Below, piece after piece: positions 11,068 to 24,321 of a stretch of DNA of 27,280 nucleotides. Source of the stretch: a virus; IMG/VR virus record IMGVR_UViG_3300030035_000142, positions 1 through 27,280 of that record, one strand, 5' to 3'. The number at the start of each line of letters is the position of its first letter. The stretch's first letter is position 1. Both the position numbers and the translations under genes were made by a program. The notes under the pieces were generated by a model. It saw only the letters and a list, made by a program, of their open reading frames with translations, made no database searches and was not told where the DNA came from.

Positions 11068-13004
11068 GATTCTATCGGCACGTTAATATCTTCAAAAGCG
11101 GCGGTTGCCTCGGATTCAACGGCATTCGTTCCTATTGCGTTCAACCCGTAAAAGAGGGGGTTCACATTGCCCGGCTGGTAGTAGGCATATTCTCCGGGCC
11201 CCGCATAAACGGAAGCCGTGCCGCTGGTGGTGTTGATCACATCCGTCACCCACCTGGAAATGCCGACGCCGGTCTCAAAATTGGAGACGCCCCGGCAGGT
11301 GGCGATCTTGAACAGGTTGTTGGTCTGTGCCCCCGTGACCAGCAGCCAGAGGCCTCCCAGGTTTTCATAAACGCTGCTGTTGGCAACCGTCTGCTGCTGG
11401 TAAATAATCTTGCACACCGTCCACGGGACGGGCTCGTTTTGCGTCGCCGGGATAAAGCTGGTCGTCGTCTTGACCTGCCATCCATCGGCGGACGTCAGCG
11501 CATAAATTTCACGCACGCGCACCGTATAGCCGTTGCGCGCCGTATCGCGCACGTTGTCAAAGGTGATGTCCAGAATCTCCCCGGAATTAAATGCCAGGTC
11601 ATTGCCCGGAATAATCGTGTAGGAGTCGGTGGTAAGGTCTGTCCTGATTGTTTTCGCCCCCCGTCCGATGCCCATCGTTATCTTCGCCGCGGCCGTGGCC
11701 CGCCAGACAAATGAAAAGCCGGCCCAGGAAGAATAATTCCATTGGGAACTGGGGCCTTCAAAAGGGGCCTGAATAGTCGTGTGAGCGCCCGCGGAAATTC
11801 CTATGCGGGCCATCTGGTAGGGAACCGTTTTAGTCACCGTTGCCGTGCCGGTAGTTGTCAGCGTGTCCGTATTCAGGAAAGCCGCCGCCGTATAAGCATT
11901 GGCTGCGCCTCCCATGCCCGCGGCATACAGGCGGTTGACGCCGGATTCATTGGTCGGCGCTCCCACGGCCAGCGGGATGTTGACGCCTCCATTGGCGTTG
12001 ATGGCGCTTGAAAACGTGGATGTCCCCGCGCAGTTGAAGCTGGCGCCCTGGCTGATATTCAGGATTCCGGTCTCTACCATGAATGTCCCTCTCAGCCATC
12101 CGCCCGACCGAAGATCGACCGACTGGTAAAACCGGGTGATCCCGTAAATCTGGTTCAGCGTGCCGGCGCTTCCGCTGCCGTCCGGGTTGTTGACCACCAG
12201 AGGCCCGTTCACGGTAGCTGATTCGGCTGTCAGGGCTCCCCCGATATTCACATCGCCAACGTTGGATGTCAGAGTACCAGGATCTCCCTTTTCCCCTTGC
12301 GGCCCCTGGGGGCCTGCCGGACCTTCCGGCCCCTGGGGGCCCTCCGGGCCTTGAGGCCCCGCCGGTCCTGTATCTCCCTTCGGTCCCTGCTCCCCGGTTT
12401 CGCCCTGCGGCCCGCGTTCCCCGGTTTCGCCGCGTGGACCTTGCGGCCCTTCGGGTCCGGTTTCACCCCGTTCACCCTGCGGGCCTGACGGTCCCTGAGG
12501 ACCAACATCCCCGCGGGGAATCGTGAAATTGAGCAGATAGGATCCTGATTCAGTTCCCTTGACGGCTTCCGCGTTGGCGGGCGTCCCCGGTTCCCCGGTG
12601 GTGACCTGACCCACGGACAGATTAAAATTCTCGGCGTACTTTTTGGCCTGCTCCGCGTACCAGGCGGCGCTGGACGCGTTATCAAGCATGATTTGCACGC
12701 AGCCGCTTCCTTCCGGCAGCTGCACGACGACCGCGCCCGCCACGGCCTGCTGTTCGTCCGGCAAGTCCGGCGTCACCCGGCCCGAAGAAACAAAGCATCC
12801 GTAAAGGAACGGGCTTTCCTCGTTTCCGTCGTCCATGAAGACGTCATAGGACCACATGCCCGCAGGCACCGAAGCCCAGGAAATTACGCCATTGCCCTCG
12901 TCATCGCGTGAAAAGCCGAACTCCGTCACGCCCGTCTTGAGACGGACAGCGCCGCGCAGGGTGACGCCGCTCATATCGACGGGATCGCCCTGAAAATCCA
13001 CCAC
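11064..13004 (-). CDS. Collagen-like repeat tail fibre protein (646 aa from GTG; possible AGG start at 13070)
   Basis: About 26 uninterrupted G-X-Y triplets ([76 protein letters not shown]), flanked by a beta-rich N-domain and a ~400-aa C-terminal domain. Confidence 0.8.
12276..12512 (-). repeat. Collagen triple-helix (G-X-Y)n coding repeat
   Basis: Read directly from the translation of residues ~165-243 of the fibre ORF. Confidence 0.9.
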
Positions 13005-13072
13005 GCGGACGACCAGGGACTGGTTCAGCCCTGTGACGGTCCGGATATCGTATTTACCTGCCTGCTGCCTGG

Positions 13073-13106
13073 AAAAAAAGAGGATGCGGGGGAGCAGCGC
13101 TCCCCC
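13073..13106 (-). terminator. GC hairpin plus T7 run between the tube and fibre genes (weak intrinsic terminator or attenuator)
   Basis: Minus-strand GGGGGAGC-GCT-GCTCCCCC (8-bp perfect stem), then GCATCCTC and TTTTTTT. The 8-nt spacer between the stem and the U-run is atypical. Confidence 0.3.
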
Positions 13107-13118
13107 TGGTGAAACACG

Positions 13119-13730
13119 TCAGGAACCCGGCACCGGCGTCACGTCCTGCACATTGGAAGGCGTGAAATTGTAGTCGCCGCGGTAATCCATTTCGAACTCG
13201 AACTGGGGTGAAGCGATCGCCGTGGTGTGTTCGGGGTCCTGCAGGAGGCGCAAATCTCCGTGCGCCACGCCCGTCAAGTACACCGTCCCCACGTCGTTCT
13301 GATACCAGAAACGGATATGTCCGGAAATTTTATTATCCCCGCCATGGCCGACGGTGGTCGATTCCTCGCCGTTGGCGGGAGCCGCCCCCAGGGCAAACGC
13401 CAGCTGGAAGTATTCGGGCGACATATCCGGCGTGGTGAAAGTCATCCGCTTGCCGGTCGTCGTGTTCTTGCGCTGCTGCCGGTAGCCAAGATTGCCTCCG
13501 TAAAAGCGCGTCACTTCCCCCTCGACCTGCGTGGCAACGGACTGGAACGCGCCCAGCAGCCCGAAACTCACCCAAGGCGCTTCGGGCCCGGCTGTCGGAT
13601 CGGCCGGAGGATTGGCGGGAGGTTCGGGATATTGGCCGGGGCCGGTAACGTAAGAGGCTCCCTCGTCCTCGGTCACCTTGATGCCGTCGGGGAGGAAAAT
13701 AGCCAGAACGCCGGTAATCTGCGGCGTCAC
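13119..13730 (-). CDS. Putative major tail (tube) protein (203 aa from GTG; possible AGG start at 13769)
   Basis: The function call rests on size and position after the head-completion genes. The frame is open back to the upstream gene's TAA. AGG GCT ACT at 13769 would give MATTYDPIFTNRNV... Confidence 0.45.
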   Translation of the reverse strand: MTPQITGVLAIFLPDGIKVTEDEGASYVTGPGQYPEPPANPPADPTAGPEAPWVSFGLLGAFQSVATQVEGEVTRFYGGNLGYRQQRKNTTTGKRMTFTTPDMSPEYFQLAFALGAAPANGEESTTVGHGGDNKISGHIRFWYQNDVGTVYLTGVAHGDLRLLQDPEHTTAIASPQFEFEMDYRGDYNFTPSNVQDVTPVPGS

Positions 13731-13784
13731 GTTGCGGTTGGTAAAGATAGGATCGTATGTAGTAGCCCTGATGCTTGAAAAAAG

Positions 13785-18447: not shown

Positions 18448-19569
18448 TTATCGGTTGGCGGAGACGATGAAGCCTTCTTCGGTCGCTTTCTGGTAGGCGT
18501 CATAGCGCTTCATGCCGTCCTTGATCAGTTCGTTCACACGGTTGTTGAATCCTTCAATGGATTCCTTCTTGCGGAACGGATCAGGGGGATTCAGCGTCAC
18601 GCGGCGGTTCAGAGGCGTCCTTTGCGGAAGCTTCTTCTGCTCCGGCTGCTCCTGTTTCTGTGGGGCCGCCTGGCGGTTGAGCGCACGGATAAAGGCGTTC
18701 AGCGCGGCGGGGCTTTCCCGGAGAGAGTTTTTCAGCTCTTCCCGGCGTTCTTCCGTAAATTCCTCGCGTTCTTCCTCGTCCAGCGCGTTTTCGTACGTGC
18801 TGACGGCGTCGTCCACTTCGGCGTTCACGTGGTCTTTCTCGCGCTTTTCCAGCGAGAGCAGTTCATCAAGTCGTCCGAGGATCGCCCTGCTCATATCGTC
18901 GGTGCCGTCAAATTCGACATCCAGCTTGTCAAGCAGGGAATCGAACAGGGCCCGCTGGGCCTTGTCCATTTCCTTGGACGGATATTCTCTATCGTCGTTG
19001 TCCATATTGGTGTTCTGGGTTATTTCCCCCTCTTCGCGGGGCTTTTGTGGTTTGGTGTCGCCCCCGGCCTCGTCGGAGGCGGGGGAAGTCTGTCGGTTGA
19101 CCAGCGGCCGCTTTCCCTTGATGCGGGGTCGGTTGGTCAGGGCAAAGCCGGTCAGGCGCGACGGTCGGTAAACGCCGTCCGTAAAGGTCATGCCTTCGCC
19201 GTATTCCGTAGAAGATTGCGTATATTCTTTGTCCTCGAGCATCTTCAGGCCGCGGGGAGTCCATTCAATGAAGCCGTAGAGTTCCAGCGTACCGGAAGGG
19301 TCTCGGTAGGTGTCCAGCCTCTTGAGCCATCCGAGAGCCCGCGTATCGCGGGAAAGGTCGTGGCTCAGGTGGTCGCCGTCGATGAGCATGCCCGGCCCGT
19401 CAAAGGTGCGGGCGTTGAAGTCGTCCACCATGTCCCGGATCGCCTGCTCGTCGATGCGCAGCACGGCGGGTCCTTCACCGTAGTCGACGTCATGGTCTCC
19501 GCTTTTCTCGATGTGATACCAGCCGTTGGCGGGTCGGGACAGGTCATTGATTTGTTTCGTACTGATCAT
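18448..19569 (-). CDS. Mu gpI-like prohead protease / scaffold fusion
   Basis: The N-domain GDHLSHDLSRDTRALGWLKRLD...LELYGFIEWTPRGLKMLEDKEYTQSSTEY...RLTGFALTNRPRIKG matches the Mu-like prophage I protein pattern. The C-terminal half is an acidic coiled coil (scaffold-like). Confidence 0.7.
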   Translation of the reverse strand: MISTKQINDLSRPANGWYHIEKSGDHDVDYGEGPAVLRIDEQAIRDMVDDFNARTFDGPGMLIDGDHLSHDLSRDTRALGWLKRLDTYRDPSGTLELYGFIEWTPRGLKMLEDKEYTQSSTEYGEGMTFTDGVYRPSRLTGFALTNRPRIKGKRPLVNRQTSPASDEAGGDTKPQKPREEGEITQNTNMDNDDREYPSKEMDKAQRALFDSLLDKLDVEFDGTDDMSRAILGRLDELLSLEKREKDHVNAEVDDAVSTYENALDEEEREEFTEERREELKNSLRESPAALNAFIRALNRQAAPQKQEQPEQKKLPQRTPLNRRVTLNPPDPFRKKESIEGFNNRVNELIKDGMKRYDAYQKATEEGFIVSANR

Positions 19570-20680
19570 CGGTAAATCCTTTCATGAGTCCGGCGTAAAT
19601 CATTTGCTGAAGCTGCTCGTAGGCGTCGGGCGGAATGAGGGAGGCTCCCGACTCCCTGTTGACTGCCGCCGCCGTCGGCACAGGCTCCCTCGTGTCCTCG
19701 ATCGACATGCCGATCTTTTCTTCGATTTCGGTTTTCTCCGGACGGACGCCTCCGTCCGCAAGGGCGGCGATTTCCTCGGCCTTCTGCAATGGCGTCTGGA
19801 CGGTGTCAAAGGTGATGTGGAGGCGGGCCAGCGGTTCGCCGTCTCCCAATATAAGCGGGCTGATGGCGGTGTTGAACGCTTCCGCCACTTTGGAGCAGAC
19901 GGCGGATACCACCGCATTCCAGCTGTCCGTATGGGCGGACCCGGCCAGCGTGCCTGATCCTGATTCGTTCAGGACCGTCAGGGTTCCGGCCATCACAAAA
20001 CGCACCTGGTCCTTGTCGGCCATGTTGATGCGCGAGAGAAAATAGTTTTCGTTGATGTTGGACGCCTTGAGCGGTTCCGCCTTGCAGTCAGGAGGCAGCA
20101 CGATAGAGGCGCCTGATTTAAGCTGTTCGCAGGCCCGTTCCAGCGCGTCCATGACGGCGGGACTCGCGTCCTTGGGGGCGGTGATGATGACCGGGGCGCT
20201 TCCGTAGCGGTCCATGTGGTTGTCCCACGTGATTTTTGCGTGGTTGCGCTCAAAAGAAGCGCGGGCAGCCGGGAACAGGATGGGATACTGGTGTTCCATC
20301 ACGACGAGCGTTTCGTCTTCCACGCTTTCCCCGGTGTCGACGCCGATATAGCACTGTGGGTTGAACTGCCACTCGTTCAACACTCCCGGCCTCACCCAAT
20401 AGCGCTGTGGGATGAATTCAAAGCGGCGGCCCCAGGCGTCCTCAATGTATTGGAGGTGGGCGTAACCGTAGAACATGGCGGAGGCCAGCTGCCCAAAGGC
20501 CTGTTGAAGTCCGGTGACGGAGTGATAGAATTCTTCCAGCGCGTTCTGCTGACGCTGGGCTTCCGGGCTGTCGTCCGCGGCGTCAATCTTCCAGCCCTGC
20601 ATGGAGACGCTTTCAATGAGGCGGGAGTAGAGCATTCCCAGCAGCCCGTCCGAGTAGATGACCTCGTCCCAGATGAGCAT
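19544..20680 (-). CDS. Portal protein, Mu gp29 / DUF935-like (coordinates from the first ATG; true N-terminus probably at AGG 20908)
   Basis: 378 aa from the ATG is short for this family. The conserved block ...ADLQTLIDARNEARRGAFARQ|MLIWDEVIYSDGLLGMLYSRL spans the ATG. The frame is open upstream to within the tRNA gene and has no ATG/GTG/TTG. Confidence 0.8.
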   Translation of the reverse strand: MLIWDEVIYSDGLLGMLYSRLIESVSMQGWKIDAADDSPEAQRQQNALEEFYHSVTGLQQAFGQLASAMFYGYAHLQYIEDAWGRRFEFIPQRYWVRPGVLNEWQFNPQCYIGVDTGESVEDETLVVMEHQYPILFPAARASFERNHAKITWDNHMDRYGSAPVIITAPKDASPAVMDALERACEQLKSGASIVLPPDCKAEPLKASNINENYFLSRINMADKDQVRFVMAGTLTVLNESGSGTLAGSAHTDSWNAVVSAVCSKVAEAFNTAISPLILGDGEPLARLHITFDTVQTPLQKAEEIAALADGGVRPEKTEIEEKIGMSIEDTREPVPTAAAVNRESGASLIPPDAYEQLQQMIYAGLMKGFTDDQYETNQ

Positions 20681-20928
20681 TTGGCGGGCAAAGGCTCCCC
20701 GCCGCGCTTCGTTCCGGGCGTCAATCAGGGTTTGCAGGTCGGCTCCCTGTAACGGATCCCAATATTCGAACCATTGGGGCCTGCCTGGCTTGCGGCTTTG
20801 TTCCGTCAGGGCTCGCCGGGTGAGATCCGTTTCAAGTTCCTTGATTCTGGTCTCCTGTTGGGCGACCAGCTTCGGGGCGTTGAGGATATTTCTTAATGCG
20901 TTAAACCTGCGGCGAAAGAAAAAAATGG

Positions 20929-21002
20929 TGGTTGCAGGGGGGGGAATTGGACCCCCTACTCGGGCACAGGAAACCCGCGTGATAACGTTTCACCACCCTG
21001 CG
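20929..21002 (-). tRNA. tRNA, anticodon CCU (AGG-reading), with an initiator-like acceptor stem and a non-canonical D/T loop
   Basis: Manual cloverleaf: CGCAGGG UG GUGA-AACGUUA-UCAC G CGGGU-UUCCUGU-GCCCG AGUA GGGGG-UCCAAUU-CCCCC CCCUGCA A CCA. All stems pair (one U.G), U33 is present, position 37 is a purine and CCA is encoded. Position 1:72 is a C x A mismatch. Confidence 0.6.
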
Positions 21003-21018
21003 ATTGTTTACATATCGT

Positions 21019-21047
21019 CATATATTGATATATTGATATATTGTCAA
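21019..21047 (-). promoter_or_regulatory. Near-consensus sigma70-type promoter directly upstream of the tRNA
   Basis: The minus strand reads TTGACA (21047-21042), a 17-nt spacer, then TATATG (21024-21019), about 17 nt before tRNA position 1. It starts 2 nt after the terL stop codon. Confidence 0.4.
21021..21044. repeat. 3 x 8-nt tandem repeat TATATTGA / TATATTGA / TATATTGT
   Basis: Read directly from the + strand. It fills the spacer and -10 region of the putative tRNA promoter. Confidence 0.85.
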
Positions 21048-21049
21048 CC

Positions 21050-22357
21050 CTAATATCTCCCGTAAGCGCGTTTTGATGACACGGGCCGGGCGTACCAGGC
21101 TCCCAGCGTCCGGGCCAGTCCGCTGTGCCGGCGCGCGTGCCAGGCCATGACGAGGGCGTCGGCGCGGTCGGGAGAACGGACGCCCCGTTTCGCCATGTCT
21201 TCCTTGCTTTCGATTTTGACGCGGCCGATCGCGTCGGTTTGGAGCCGGGGCGCTACCAGCTGCTCAATCGTGTCCTCGTCAATGTCGAGGATGAGTTCCT
21301 TTTCTTCGATGGCTCGGGCCAGGGCCCGCCACGCCTGGGCGCGGAGGTTGACAAAGGCCTGCGTATCGTCTGCCGGGAAACCGCCCCGGTAGGAGTGCAC
21401 CGGGAAGCCCTCGGCGCGGAAGTCGTCAATGATGGGTAGTCCAAGGCCGTCTCCGTCCGCGTAAATGCGGTCGGCGGGGATGCCGAGTTCGGACGCCCTG
21501 CGGCGGAACCGTCCGCGCGCTCCTACGGTGTCCGGGTCCGACCAGTGGTCGGCGATGAAGAATCGGTTGCCCTGCCCGGCCGCGAAGACGTTTTCGTCGC
21601 CTCCGGCCGCGAAGTCGAAGCCGCCGCAGGTCTCCCCGGTGTCCAGAAAGGGAGGCGGGTTGTTGACCAGATCCATGAGGGCGCGCCGGGGAATGACGGA
21701 CTGACCGTCGAGGTCCGTGAATTCGCCGAGGATGGCGGAGCGGTAGAAGGAGGACTGCTCGCCGTATTCTTTTTTCAGGCGCTCGGCCTTGCCCGGGTCA
21801 TTGATCTCAATGTGGGGGCAATCCTCGTATTTGACGCGGATCTTGTAGTAGAGGGATGAATTTTTGTGGAAGCAGTCGTAGAAGGTGCCGGAATCGGCCC
21901 CAGGTGACGAGGTAATGAACGCGTGGAAGAGCGTGCAGCGGGAAACGGCGGTGAAGATGGAGTCCGGGATGGTTTTAGCCTCGTCGAGGACGTAAAAGAC
22001 GGGGTCCACGTCGGGCGAGATTTTCGGGTGCCATCCTTCCGCGCGGCCGGCGTTGTCGGTCGAGAAGCCCACGGCAAAGCCTCCCTCCGGCGTGCGAATC
22101 TCGGTTTTGTTGAATGTCCAGCCGTCAAAGAAAGGGTTGTCCATGTAGCGGCGGAGCGCGGGAAAGAGCTGCTTTTCCACCTGCATCCACGACGACGACG
22201 TAACCGGCACCTGACCCCGCGGGAAGCAGGTAAGGAAGTACAGGATGGCCGGAGCGATGCAGTTGCTCGTCTTGCCGGATCCGTTGGGAGCAACCAGAGC
22301 CACGCTTTTCCCTCCCAGGGTCAGCTTGCCGAGGGACAACGCCTTGATGGCTTCCAC
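21050..22357 (-). CDS. terL: Terminase large subunit (coordinates from the first canonical GTG; true N-terminus probably at AGG 22423)
   Basis: Walker A VAPNGSGKT, Walker B-like FYVLDEAK and a C-terminal nuclease-type acidic motif (SPDRADALVMA). The typical TerL N-terminal block FFLRHVLRLDPYPWQ lies upstream of the GTG. Confidence 0.9.
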   Translation of the reverse strand: MEAIKALSLGKLTLGGKSVALVAPNGSGKTSNCIAPAILYFLTCFPRGQVPVTSSSWMQVEKQLFPALRRYMDNPFFDGWTFNKTEIRTPEGGFAVGFSTDNAGRAEGWHPKISPDVDPVFYVLDEAKTIPDSIFTAVSRCTLFHAFITSSPGADSGTFYDCFHKNSSLYYKIRVKYEDCPHIEINDPGKAERLKKEYGEQSSFYRSAILGEFTDLDGQSVIPRRALMDLVNNPPPFLDTGETCGGFDFAAGGDENVFAAGQGNRFFIADHWSDPDTVGARGRFRRRASELGIPADRIYADGDGLGLPIIDDFRAEGFPVHSYRGGFPADDTQAFVNLRAQAWRALARAIEEKELILDIDEDTIEQLVAPRLQTDAIGRVKIESKEDMAKRGVRSPDRADALVMAWHARRHSGLARTLGAWYARPVSSKRAYGRY

Positions 22358-22429
22358 CTGCCAGGGATAGGGATCCAGGCGGAGGACATGGCGGAGGAAG
22401 AAGCTGACGGGGAGGCGTGTCCTGGTCTG

Positions 22430-22996
22430 TTAAGCGTGGAGTTTGCCGGCGATGGTTTCCAGCGCGGTTTTCTCGTCTTCCTGCAGCTGGGCCAGCTGCT
22501 CGGGGTCCAGGGTGATTTTCCGTTCCAGCGGCGCGCCGGGAACGCCGGCGACATCCTGACGGACCCGGTCGCCGAATTTTTCCGGCGCGAATCGGGCGGC
22601 GACTTTCAGCCGGGTTTCAATGGCGAGCTTCTTCGCGGCGACGGAGGCGGAGCCGCATTCCGGGTCCAAGGCGACTTTCGCGGCTTCGTCGGCCAGCTCC
22701 TGACAGGCGTCAATCATAGCTTCCGACTGCGCTTCCCGCGCGCGTTGAATGATTTTACAAAACTCTTCCCGCTCATGTCTCCATCTCCAGACAGTTAAAA
22801 CATCCGGCATGTGGTCATCGGAGCAGATGGATTTCATGGTTTCCCCGTTGGCAAGACGGGTGGCTATCTCGGCGGCCAGTTCCTCGGTGTAGAGGCTCGG
22901 CCGCCCCGGTTTTCTTTTGGTGGTAGGTTTCTTTTTCCTTCCGGGACGATAAGATTTTTTTAGTAGCGCGTCAAAACAAGATTTTTTCTCTTGCAT
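22430..22996 (-). CDS. terS: Terminase small subunit
   Basis: I start at ATG 22996 (MQEKKSCF...). GRPSLYTEELAAEIATRLANGETMKSICSDDHMPDVLTVWRWRHEREEFCKIIQRAREAQSEAM matches the widespread HTH-type TerS N-domain. The 270-aa long form is antisense to the neighbouring + gene and looks hydrophobic and junk-like. Confidence 0.7.
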   Translation of the reverse strand: MQEKKSCFDALLKKSYRPGRKKKPTTKRKPGRPSLYTEELAAEIATRLANGETMKSICSDDHMPDVLTVWRWRHEREEFCKIIQRAREAQSEAMIDACQELADEAAKVALDPECGSASVAAKKLAIETRLKVAARFAPEKFGDRVRQDVAGVPGAPLERKITLDPEQLAQLQEDEKTALETIAGKLHA

Positions 22997-23019
22997 CACT
23001 AAACATTGTTTAGTATATT
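22991..23019 (+). promoter_or_regulatory. Putative promoter of the plus-strand small-gene operon, with a palindromic operator in the spacer
   Basis: TTGCAT (22991-22996), a 17-nt spacer, then TATATT (23014-23019). The spacer contains the perfect 7-1-7 palindrome CTAAACA-T-TGTTTAG (22999-23013). The -10 overlaps a copy of the TATATTGA 8-mer seen at the tRNA promoter. Confidence 0.4.
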
Positions 23020-23089
23020 GATCTTGTTGATGGGAGGTAAGGGACCAACCGGAGACACAATCCAAAACCAAACCAGAAAGACTAAAACA

Positions 23090-23376: not shown

Positions 23377-23745
23377 ATGACTAAAAACGAATTAACAGAA
23401 ATTCTCAAACTGCACGAAATGTGGCTGAACGAGGAAGAAGGCGGCGCTCAGGCCAAATTTGAAGACCTCGACCTCAGGGGGCTCGACTTTAGGGGTGCTA
23501 ACTTAATCAAGGCTGACTTTAAGGACGCCGACTGTTCCGGAGTTGATTTCACAGGGGCCGACTTGAGATGTGCCGATTTCACCGGGGCCAATCTAACCGG
23601 GACCGATTTCTCCGGGTGCAATCTGAAATGGGCCAATTTTTACAAGGCCAATCTAACCGGAGCCAGATTTAACGGGGCTATCCTGGAATGCGCCGACTTT
23701 AGATGGGCCCGCGGGATTGTCGATCTGACCGTAGGGAAAGCTTAA
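23377..23745 (+). CDS. Pentapeptide-repeat protein
   Basis: About 18 consecutive A(D/N)LXX-type pentapeptides (DLRGLDFRGANLIKADFKDADCSGVDFTGADLRCADFTGANLTGTDFSGCNLKWANFYKANLTGARFNGAILECADF). Confidence 0.85.
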   Translation: MTKNELTEILKLHEMWLNEEEGGAQAKFEDLDLRGLDFRGANLIKADFKDADCSGVDFTGADLRCADFTGANLTGTDFSGCNLKWANFYKANLTGARFNGAILECADFRWARGIVDLTVGKA

Positions 23746-24287: not shown

Positions 24288-24321
24288 TATACGAGATTCC
24301 AGGGTATACGAGATTCCAGGG
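24288..24321. repeat. Exact 2 x 17-nt tandem repeat TATACGAGATTCCAGGG
   Basis: Read directly from the sequence. It fills nearly the whole 37-nt gap between the convergent stop codons at 24282-24284 (+) and 24322-24324 (-). Confidence 0.9.

Follow-up and report, generated by a model that had tools for sequence, protein, structure and literature searches.

Phage morons, as described by Juhala, Hendrix and colleagues, consist of a gene that carries its own promoter and terminator and lies between two genes that are direct neighbours in related phages. Promoters that contain simple repeats can be phase-variable, as in the case of the TA repeats between the hifA and hifB promoters of Haemophilus influenzae, or the TAAA tract upstream of nadA in Neisseria. 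The stringently controlled tRNA promoters of E. coli are characterized by GC-rich discriminators. Initiator tRNAs have been modified to recognize other start codons; the amber initiator is one such engineered initiator tRNA with a changed anticodon. Further engineered initiators with changed anticodons include i-tRNA(AAC) (bioRxiv 10.1101/2021.05.25.445580) and non-AUG initiators (PMC11744186). In Akkermansia muciniphila, Cappable-seq of the mouse caecum revealed -35 and TATAAT-type signals at 886 transcription start sites (PMC4782308).

Here, we analyze the 47 bases (21003-21049) that separate the terL stop codon from a tRNA gene in a complete virus record of 27,280 bases (hereinafter, the window), the terL-portal region of which is 95.4% identical to that of Akkermansia phage DTMo-2021a (from A. 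muciniphila NBRC 114322). The best explanation for these 47 bases appears to be a minus-strand promoter of the housekeeping-sigma (sigma-70) type, a reading based on sequence comparison to which we assign a probability of about two in three. A conserved promoter of a phage tRNA gene is, in itself, an element of an ordinary kind, and the interest comes from the tRNA that it serves, which the earlier note had handled like any passenger gene, but which is initiator-like and fits the AGG starts of the late genes. If tRNA(CCU) initiates translation at AGG, this 47-bp element sets the supply for the translation of terS, terL, portal, capsid, and further late genes, and the promoter is the most practical experimental handle on the AGG system. 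In our literature search, we found neither this promoter nor a naturally occurring AGG initiator described.

Layout of the terL-portal junction

The order of elements that the earlier note had read from the minus strand is present in the sequence: the TAG stop codon of terL is followed by GG, TTGACA, 17 nt, TATATG, and 16 nt preceding tRNA(CCU) (Table 1). The description of this site as near-consensus is accurate for the -35 hexamer and the spacing, and overstated for the -10 hexamer, which matches at four of the six positions. An automated promoter rule that needs T at position 6 of the -10 omits the minus-strand site. By composition alone, the promoter match is not significant: TTGACA-N16-18-TAT occurs once in the window, compared with 0.28 expected occurrences, and at least once in 25 of 100 shuffled sequences. 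Therefore, we examined conservation, and it is because of conservation, not the consensus match itself, that the promoter amounts to more than a chance resemblance. From the spacing, transcription is predicted to start at a purine located 6-8 nt past the -10, at 21013 or 21011; RNA polymerase would initiate about 9-11 nt before the tRNA, and the resulting short 5' leader of 9-11 nt would be trimmed by RNase P. Initiation by RNA polymerase, the start position, read-through into portal, and any regulation are features that we infer from the nucleotide sequence.

Table 1 Features of the window discussed in the text, with mean pairwise diversity among relatives where available
Feature	Coordinates	Strand	Mean pairwise diversity	Remarks
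Plus-strand promoter TTGCAT-17-TATATT	22991..23021	+		8-mer TATATTGA at 23014-23021
Upstream late promoter TTGACG-17-TATCGT	22946..22974	minus		AGG 22939 lies 6 nt past the -10
terS, Sf6-type small terminase		minus		First in late gene order
terL start AGG	22423-22421	minus		6 nt past terS stop; invariant in 28/29 junction variants
terL	21050..22423	minus	0.32 (third codon positions)	PHROG 2; after terS
terL stop TAG	21052-21050	minus		2 nt upstream of -35; invariant in 34 relatives
GG	21049-21048	minus		Between terL stop and -35
Putative -35 hexamer TTGACA	21047-21042	minus	0.01	6/6 to E. coli consensus
Tandem repeat, three exact copies of ATATATTG	21020-21043	+		Tandem Repeats Finder: period 8, 3.0 copies, 100%
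Promoter spacer, 17 nt, AT-rich	21041-21025	minus	0.145	Conserved pattern A-n-ATATCAA-n-ATATC-nn
Imperfect dyad A(C/T)ATATC / GATATGT	21041-21035 / 21016-21010	minus		Brackets -10; 6/7 complementary in the window
Putative -10 hexamer TATATG	21024-21019	minus	0.09	4/6 to TATAAT; last position without T
Discriminator and short pre-tRNA leader	21003-21018	minus		16 nt; 7/16 columns invariant
tRNA, anticodon CCT	20929-21002	minus	0.10	Between terL and portal; ARAGORN
Spacer, tRNA 3' end to portal AGG	20909..20928	minus	0.47	Pyrimidine-rich; evolves neutrally
Portal start AGG	20908-20906	minus		First ATG/GTG/TTG at 20680, 76 codons on
Portal, Mu-type	19544..20908	minus	0.27 (third codon positions, N-terminal stretch)	PHROG portal profile; after tRNA
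Protease/scaffold, Mu gpI-like		minus		After portal
Major head protein, then tail genes		minus		After protease/scaffold; head profile match

The terL and portal genes are tightly coupled in most of the more distant relatives that lack the tRNA: in 17 of the 23 scorable ones (24-30% terL identity), the distance from the terL stop to the portal start lies between -41 and +15 nt. In the window, the terL stop and the portal AGG are 141 nt apart. Promoter and tRNA together look like a small cassette, which would have been inserted into this normally tight junction. A pattern scan of viral contigs for the tRNA recovered it only within the same phage clade and at the same position.

The earlier note had called the promoter dedicated to the tRNA, a label that does not hold. 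No terminator-like site is predicted on the minus strand after the tRNA; a U-run begins 7 nt past the acceptor stem, and it is missing in two relatives (L024 and L033). In the absence of a terminator, transcripts should therefore continue into the head genes, so that the same RNAs would run on through portal, protease, and capsid. The cassette would provide the initiator-like tRNA(CCU) independently of, and beyond, the processing of the long late transcript, and the internal promoter would raise the level of head-gene mRNA relative to terminase mRNA.

Conservation of the promoter-like segment

The relatives used for comparison comprise 43 sequences from IMG/VR, GenBank, and one A. muciniphila MAG, of which 34 are distinct across the promoter region. 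Among these 34, 26 of the 47 columns of the segment are invariant (5/6 in the -35, 4/6 in the -10, and 10/17 in the spacer). The neutral sites of the same relatives show far less invariance, with 3 of 53 four-fold degenerate sites in the two flanking genes, terL and portal, and 1 of 20 bases from the tRNA 3' end to AGG. A binomial test against the neutral sites gives p = 1.5e-20 for the whole segment and, with 6% invariance at four-fold sites as the reference, p of about 5e-9 for the 17-nt spacer, although the 34 relatives are closely related and the alignment columns are not fully independent, so that these p-values overstate independence. Despite the kinship of the relatives, the contrast between the promoter and adjacent neutral sites in the same sequences is large (see also the diversity values in Table 1). 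From these alignments, we conclude that the segment is under strong purifying selection.

The earlier note had itself raised a low-complexity spacer as an alternative. This result bears directly on that alternative, here extended to AT-rich filler that was produced by replication slippage and resembles a promoter by chance. Such an origin would be in line with the unremarkable composition-based match and with the restriction of the three exact copies to this phage. It is contradicted by the 26 invariant columns out of 47, where neutral neighbours show 5-6%, and by the lack of copy-number or length variation in the 43 relatives; the invariance and the fixed length of the block therefore exclude a mere low-complexity spacer, and filler is an explanation to which we attach hardly any probability.

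The conservation pattern bears out the proposal of a promoter-type element on the tRNA strand: across the 34 relatives, there is little or no variation in the -35, in the 17-nt spacing, or in the TAT of the -10. The -35 is TTGACA in 33 of them and TTTACA in the most divergent one, and the distance between the two hexamers shows no length change in any relative. The exact TTGACA-17-TATATG arrangement is found in 23 of the 34 sequences, and the rest have TAT(G)TG or TATATA in the same place. Within the -10, the initial T, A, and T as well as the T at the fifth position are invariant, whereas the last base is G in 32 sequences and A in 2; in about a quarter of the relatives, the hexamer is TATGTG, with a match of only 3/6.

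The automated scan gave its top score to a site on the opposite strand, TTTACA-16-TATATT with TG (21007-21034), which raises the question of whether the real promoter points the other way and yields an RNA antisense to the terL 3' end. This site matches the consensus at 10 of 12 positions, has an extended -10, and its T, A, and final T of TAnnTT (21029-21034) are invariant. Nevertheless, a plus-strand site passing the same rule is present in only 17 of the 34 relatives, its -35 varies at positions 1, 2, and 5, and there is no conserved plus-strand gene or RNA downstream. An antisense promoter would also leave the invariant TTGACA unexplained, and we regard it as very unlikely.

To compare the putative minus-strand promoter with those of the host, we read the regions upstream of 47 tRNA matches in an Akkermansia genome that carries a related prophage. 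Most host tRNA genes that are first in their operon are preceded by cTTG(C/A)CA, a spacer of 16-18 nt, and TAnAnn, so that the geometry of the phage element matches that of the host tRNA promoters. The host -10 ends 11-46 nt before the mature 5' end, compared with 16 nt for the phage element. The last base of the host -10 is T in roughly 60% and A in roughly 28% of the cases, and G in two tRNA-Asp genes; a last base other than T thus appears unusual in this host, but not disqualifying. The host initiator tRNA has TTGACA-16-TATAAC and, after the gene, its own terminator with a clear hairpin and a T-run. In the same phages, the -10 of every late terS promoter is TAnnnT, unlike that of the tRNA promoter. 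The element also indicates that host-type promoters occur within the packaging and head operon of Akkermansia phages.

The spacer is conserved far beyond the need of a plain promoter, such that part of the constraint has another cause. This cause, which might also account for the hexamers, could be a bound protein, the bendability of the DNA, or a stem formed in read-through RNA. The earlier note had described three tandem 8-nt repeats at 21021-21044; three exact copies do exist, one position away, as units of ATATATTG, whereas in the proposed phase (TATATTGA) two copies are exact and the third has one mismatch (TATATTGT). On the tRNA strand, the repeat reads CAATATAT three times; it runs from the end of the -35 through the spacer into the -10, most of which it covers. 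The three units would form the spacer and the -10 of the promoter. Exact units are found in this phage only. In the relatives, the units are degenerate and follow CAAnnTAT; their fourth and fifth letters change independently of each other, and CCGTATAT or CTATATGT sometimes stands as the third unit. The conserved part of the repeats is A-n-ATATCAA-n-ATATC together with the partial dyad that brackets the -10. The conserved periodicity of ATATC points to an extra constraint, which may come from protein binding or from a structure at the DNA or RNA level.

A phase-variable promoter is at odds with the alignment, in which no change in the length of the repeat block was found among the 43 relatives (34 distinct). 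Of the IHF-like sequence WATCAANNNNTTR, ATCAA is present twice, and the TTR part has no match.

The 8-mer TATATTGA also occurs over the -10 (TATATT) of the plus-strand promoter, at 23014-23021, as the earlier note had pointed out. Reading it as a common regulatory word was not upheld: relative to the direction of transcription, the 8-mer is inverted at 23014, and in the closest relatives this place is taken by CTAATCTA. Its presence at both promoters is thus a coincidence. A composite word, TTGACAAYATATCAA, has no second site. On the plus strand, a perfect 8-bp inverted repeat, ACTAAACA-T-TGTTTAGT (22998-23014), fills the spacer of TTGCAT-17-TATATT and is likely to be the operator of the small divergent plus-strand operon. 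Just downstream of this operon, at 24288-24321, there is an exact tandem duplication of a 17-mer (TATACGAGATTCCAGGG twice).

Given the constraint on the spacer, the segment could be primarily a protein-binding array, with promoter likeness being secondary. The direct ATATC(AA) repeats and the dyad would then be the targets of a nucleoid protein, a regulator encoded by the phage, or the small terminase, in the last case at a packaging-related site. The spacer conservation well beyond neutral (10/17 invariant) and the recurrence of ATATC with a period of 8 agree with such an array, as does the enrichment of ATATCNNNATATC, which, with at most one mismatch, occurs 5 times against 0.79 expected, three of these occurrences being within this segment. 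Yet, no similar array is present at any other control region of the window, the plus-strand operon has a different operator word (ACTAAACA-T-TGTTTAGT), an 8-bp period would put successive sites on different faces of the helix, and 11 of the 34 sequences, the window among them, have an imperfect dyad at the DNA level. The ends of DTMo-2021a lie far from the site (the match is at 11426-13229 of 31946) and lend no support to a packaging start. Moreover, a binding site within the promoter is compatible with the promoter reading and does not replace it. As the primary role of the segment, protein binding is, in our estimate, quite improbable.

Another possibility is that the conserved feature acts at the RNA level, as an AU-rich cleavage site with little structure (in an RNase E or RNase P context) that separates the terL mRNA from the tRNA in the long late transcript, in which case all of the tRNA would derive from processing and the cleavage would leave a small 3' hairpin protecting the terS-terL mRNA. 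The arms 21041-21035 and 21016-21010 can pair, the leader beside the tRNA is conserved at 7 of 16 positions, and AU-rich single strands, the typical targets of RNase E, would suit this enzyme. At the dyad pair 21040/21011, the minus strand has CG in 15 sequences, TG in 11, TA in 7, and AG in 1; as RNA, the pair is C-G, U-G, or U-A in 33 of 34, which is the path expected for an RNA helix, but we consider this pattern to be weak evidence of a dyad or an RNA stem. On the other hand, the fold of 20880-21060 is no better than those of shuffled sequences (z = -1.2; 27 of 200 fold as well), the stem would consist of 7 AU-rich pairs closing an 18-nt loop, and the pair 21038/21013 is broken in 6 of the 34 sequences. 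An RNA element also leaves unexplained why the best-conserved bases are exactly TTGACA, located exactly 17 nt from TAT, and why the layout resembles that of host tRNA promoters. An RNA-level role in place of a promoter therefore seems unlikely to us.

The tRNA(CCU) and candidate AGG starts of late genes

The tRNA downstream of the putative promoter scores 47.4 bits against the Rfam tRNA model and has an acceptor end of the initiator type, with C1xA72, G2:C71, C3:G70, A73, and an encoded CCA. The C1xA72 mismatch is kept in all relatives and, among 43 distinct host tRNA sequences, is found in the initiator only. At the foot of the anticodon stem, most relatives have CGGGG/CCCCG, with three G:C pairs, and some have A29:U41, like the host initiator, whereas the window has U31.G39. 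The D stem, GUGA/UCAC, yields U11:A24 instead of the initiator A11:U24, and the anticodon is CCU in all relatives, not CAU. Judging from these features, the tRNA is best described as initiator-like, but not as a tRNAfMet. An elongator tRNA-Arg(CCU) unrelated to the phage tRNA is present in the host itself. Ranking the host tRNAs by global identity to the phage tRNA proved uninformative, as the long Ser and Leu tRNAs score highest; the acceptor ends provided the more telling comparison.

Several further observations concern tRNA variants. Unlike nearly all relatives, the window tRNA has a D loop, AACGUUA, without the second G of GG (G19); its pair 31:39 is U.G, compared with G:C in nearly all relatives, both sides having changed with pairing kept. 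In two relatives (L015 and L017), the acceptor stem is CGCGGGA/UCCCGCA, with a 5' strand identical to that of the host initiator, and the anticodon loop reads UUCCUAG; both the stem and the C1xA72 mismatch are preserved through compensatory changes. Three distant relatives (L075, L076, and L082; 24% terL identity), one of which comes from the genome of an uncultured 'Candidatus Scatocola', have a tRNA-Met(CAT) located some 1.7 kb ahead of terL, upstream of the packaging genes.

The terS, terL, portal, and capsid genes all have a conserved AGG where the start codon belongs, and tRNA(CCU) looks like a private initiator that would let the phage start its virion genes at AGG rather than ATG. The portal frame is open from the tRNA onward, and the 76-codon stretch upstream of the first conventional start codon evolves like coding DNA. 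Consistently, with residues counted from AGG, position 30 of the PHROG portal profile falls on residue 31. The spacer between the tRNA and AGG is 15, 16, 20, 22, or 23 nt long in the relatives, and the frame upstream of the portal AGG is therefore not kept. By contrast, the CAGG and the next codons are conserved, and one group of relatives has an in-frame TAG four codons before AGG. For terL, neither the downstream GTG at 22357 nor a CTG is conserved. The most divergent relative (IMGVR_UViG_3300010163_000397, L035; 89% terL identity) has an ATG one codon away from the terL AGG of the others, and it still has the tRNA and the AGG at the portal start.

In every relative, terS is preceded by a promoter followed, after 6-8 nt, by AGG AAA AAG, despite the mosaic, unrelated DNA further upstream, which implies, as far as promoter spacing can tell, that the terS mRNA starts with AGG and is leaderless or near-leaderless. 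Counted from AGG 22939, terS encodes 169 aa, and PHROG 1482 aligns from residue 5; the listed terS open reading frame of 270 aa, which begins at ATG 23242 and overlaps a plus-strand gene, is probably too long. For the major head protein, the profile alignment begins at residue 13 when AGG 17963 is taken as the first codon.

Additional AGG-associated observations were made along the late genes. The capsid gene (17963) and the gene at 13769 both begin with AGG GCT ACT (regions 17963-17955 and 13731-13784). The capsid leader, CAGAAAGACCAAGAACA-AGG, resembles the leaders of plus-strand genes that start with ATG (CAGAAAGAACAAGACA-ATG at 23377). At about 13073-13106 on the minus strand, a GC-rich hairpin, GGGGGAGC-GCU-GCUCCCCC, is followed by a T7 run, forming a terminator-like structure inside the late operon. 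It lies past the gene that ends at 13119 and directly before the in-frame AGG 13070, a candidate AGG start of a collagen-repeat fibre gene.

If these AGG codons are starts, the late promoter upstream of terS would give rise to a long transcript, the AGG-start genes of which would be untranslatable without the tRNA. A further-reaching, doubtful extension of this scheme is that the ATATC repeat of the spacer and the dyad constitute an operator with which a protein of the phage or the host would time the AGG-initiator tRNA, such that the tRNA, silent in the lysogen, gates all AGG-start genes. Were this the case, a single 74-nt gene would gate the translation of packaging and virion proteins, including terS and terL, which lie upstream of the tRNA, and silence of the tRNA in the lysogen would spare the host stray initiation at AGG, which could be harmful.

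Comparison with known systems

The putative phage promoter resembles bacterial tRNA promoters, both those of the host and the classic E. coli examples, tyrT and leuV, which likewise combine a TTGACA-type -35, a spacer of 16-18 nt, and TAnAnn, and which have, as predicted for the phage tRNA, a short leader trimmed by RNase P. It differs from the host tRNA promoters in that its spacer is AT-rich and repetitive, whereas the host spacers are GC-rich, and in that its -10 ends in G. Unlike the host initiator tRNA gene, the phage tRNA has no terminator after it, and the phage discriminator is AT-rich, in contrast to those of stringently controlled E. coli tRNA promoters.

The resemblance to phase-variable promoters lies in the tandem repeats located between the -35 and the -10, where the gain or loss of one unit would change the spacer to 25 or 9 nt and turn the promoter off. 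In contrast to such promoters, there is no copy-number variation here, and the degenerate units of the relatives would be poor substrates for slippage. The arrangement is also reminiscent of a moron, in that an extra gene with its own putative promoter is placed between terL and portal. However, the phage cassette lacks a terminator, its cargo is a tRNA, whereas morons carry a protein gene, and this cargo appears to be essential for late translation of the phage instead of being an extra for lysogenic conversion.

With bacterial tRNAfMet, the phage tRNA has in common C1xA72, G2:C71, C3:G70, and A73, and with the engineered initiators it shares an anticodon that matches a non-AUG start codon. 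Unlike either, it is a natural, phage-encoded tRNA with the anticodon CCU and U11:A24.
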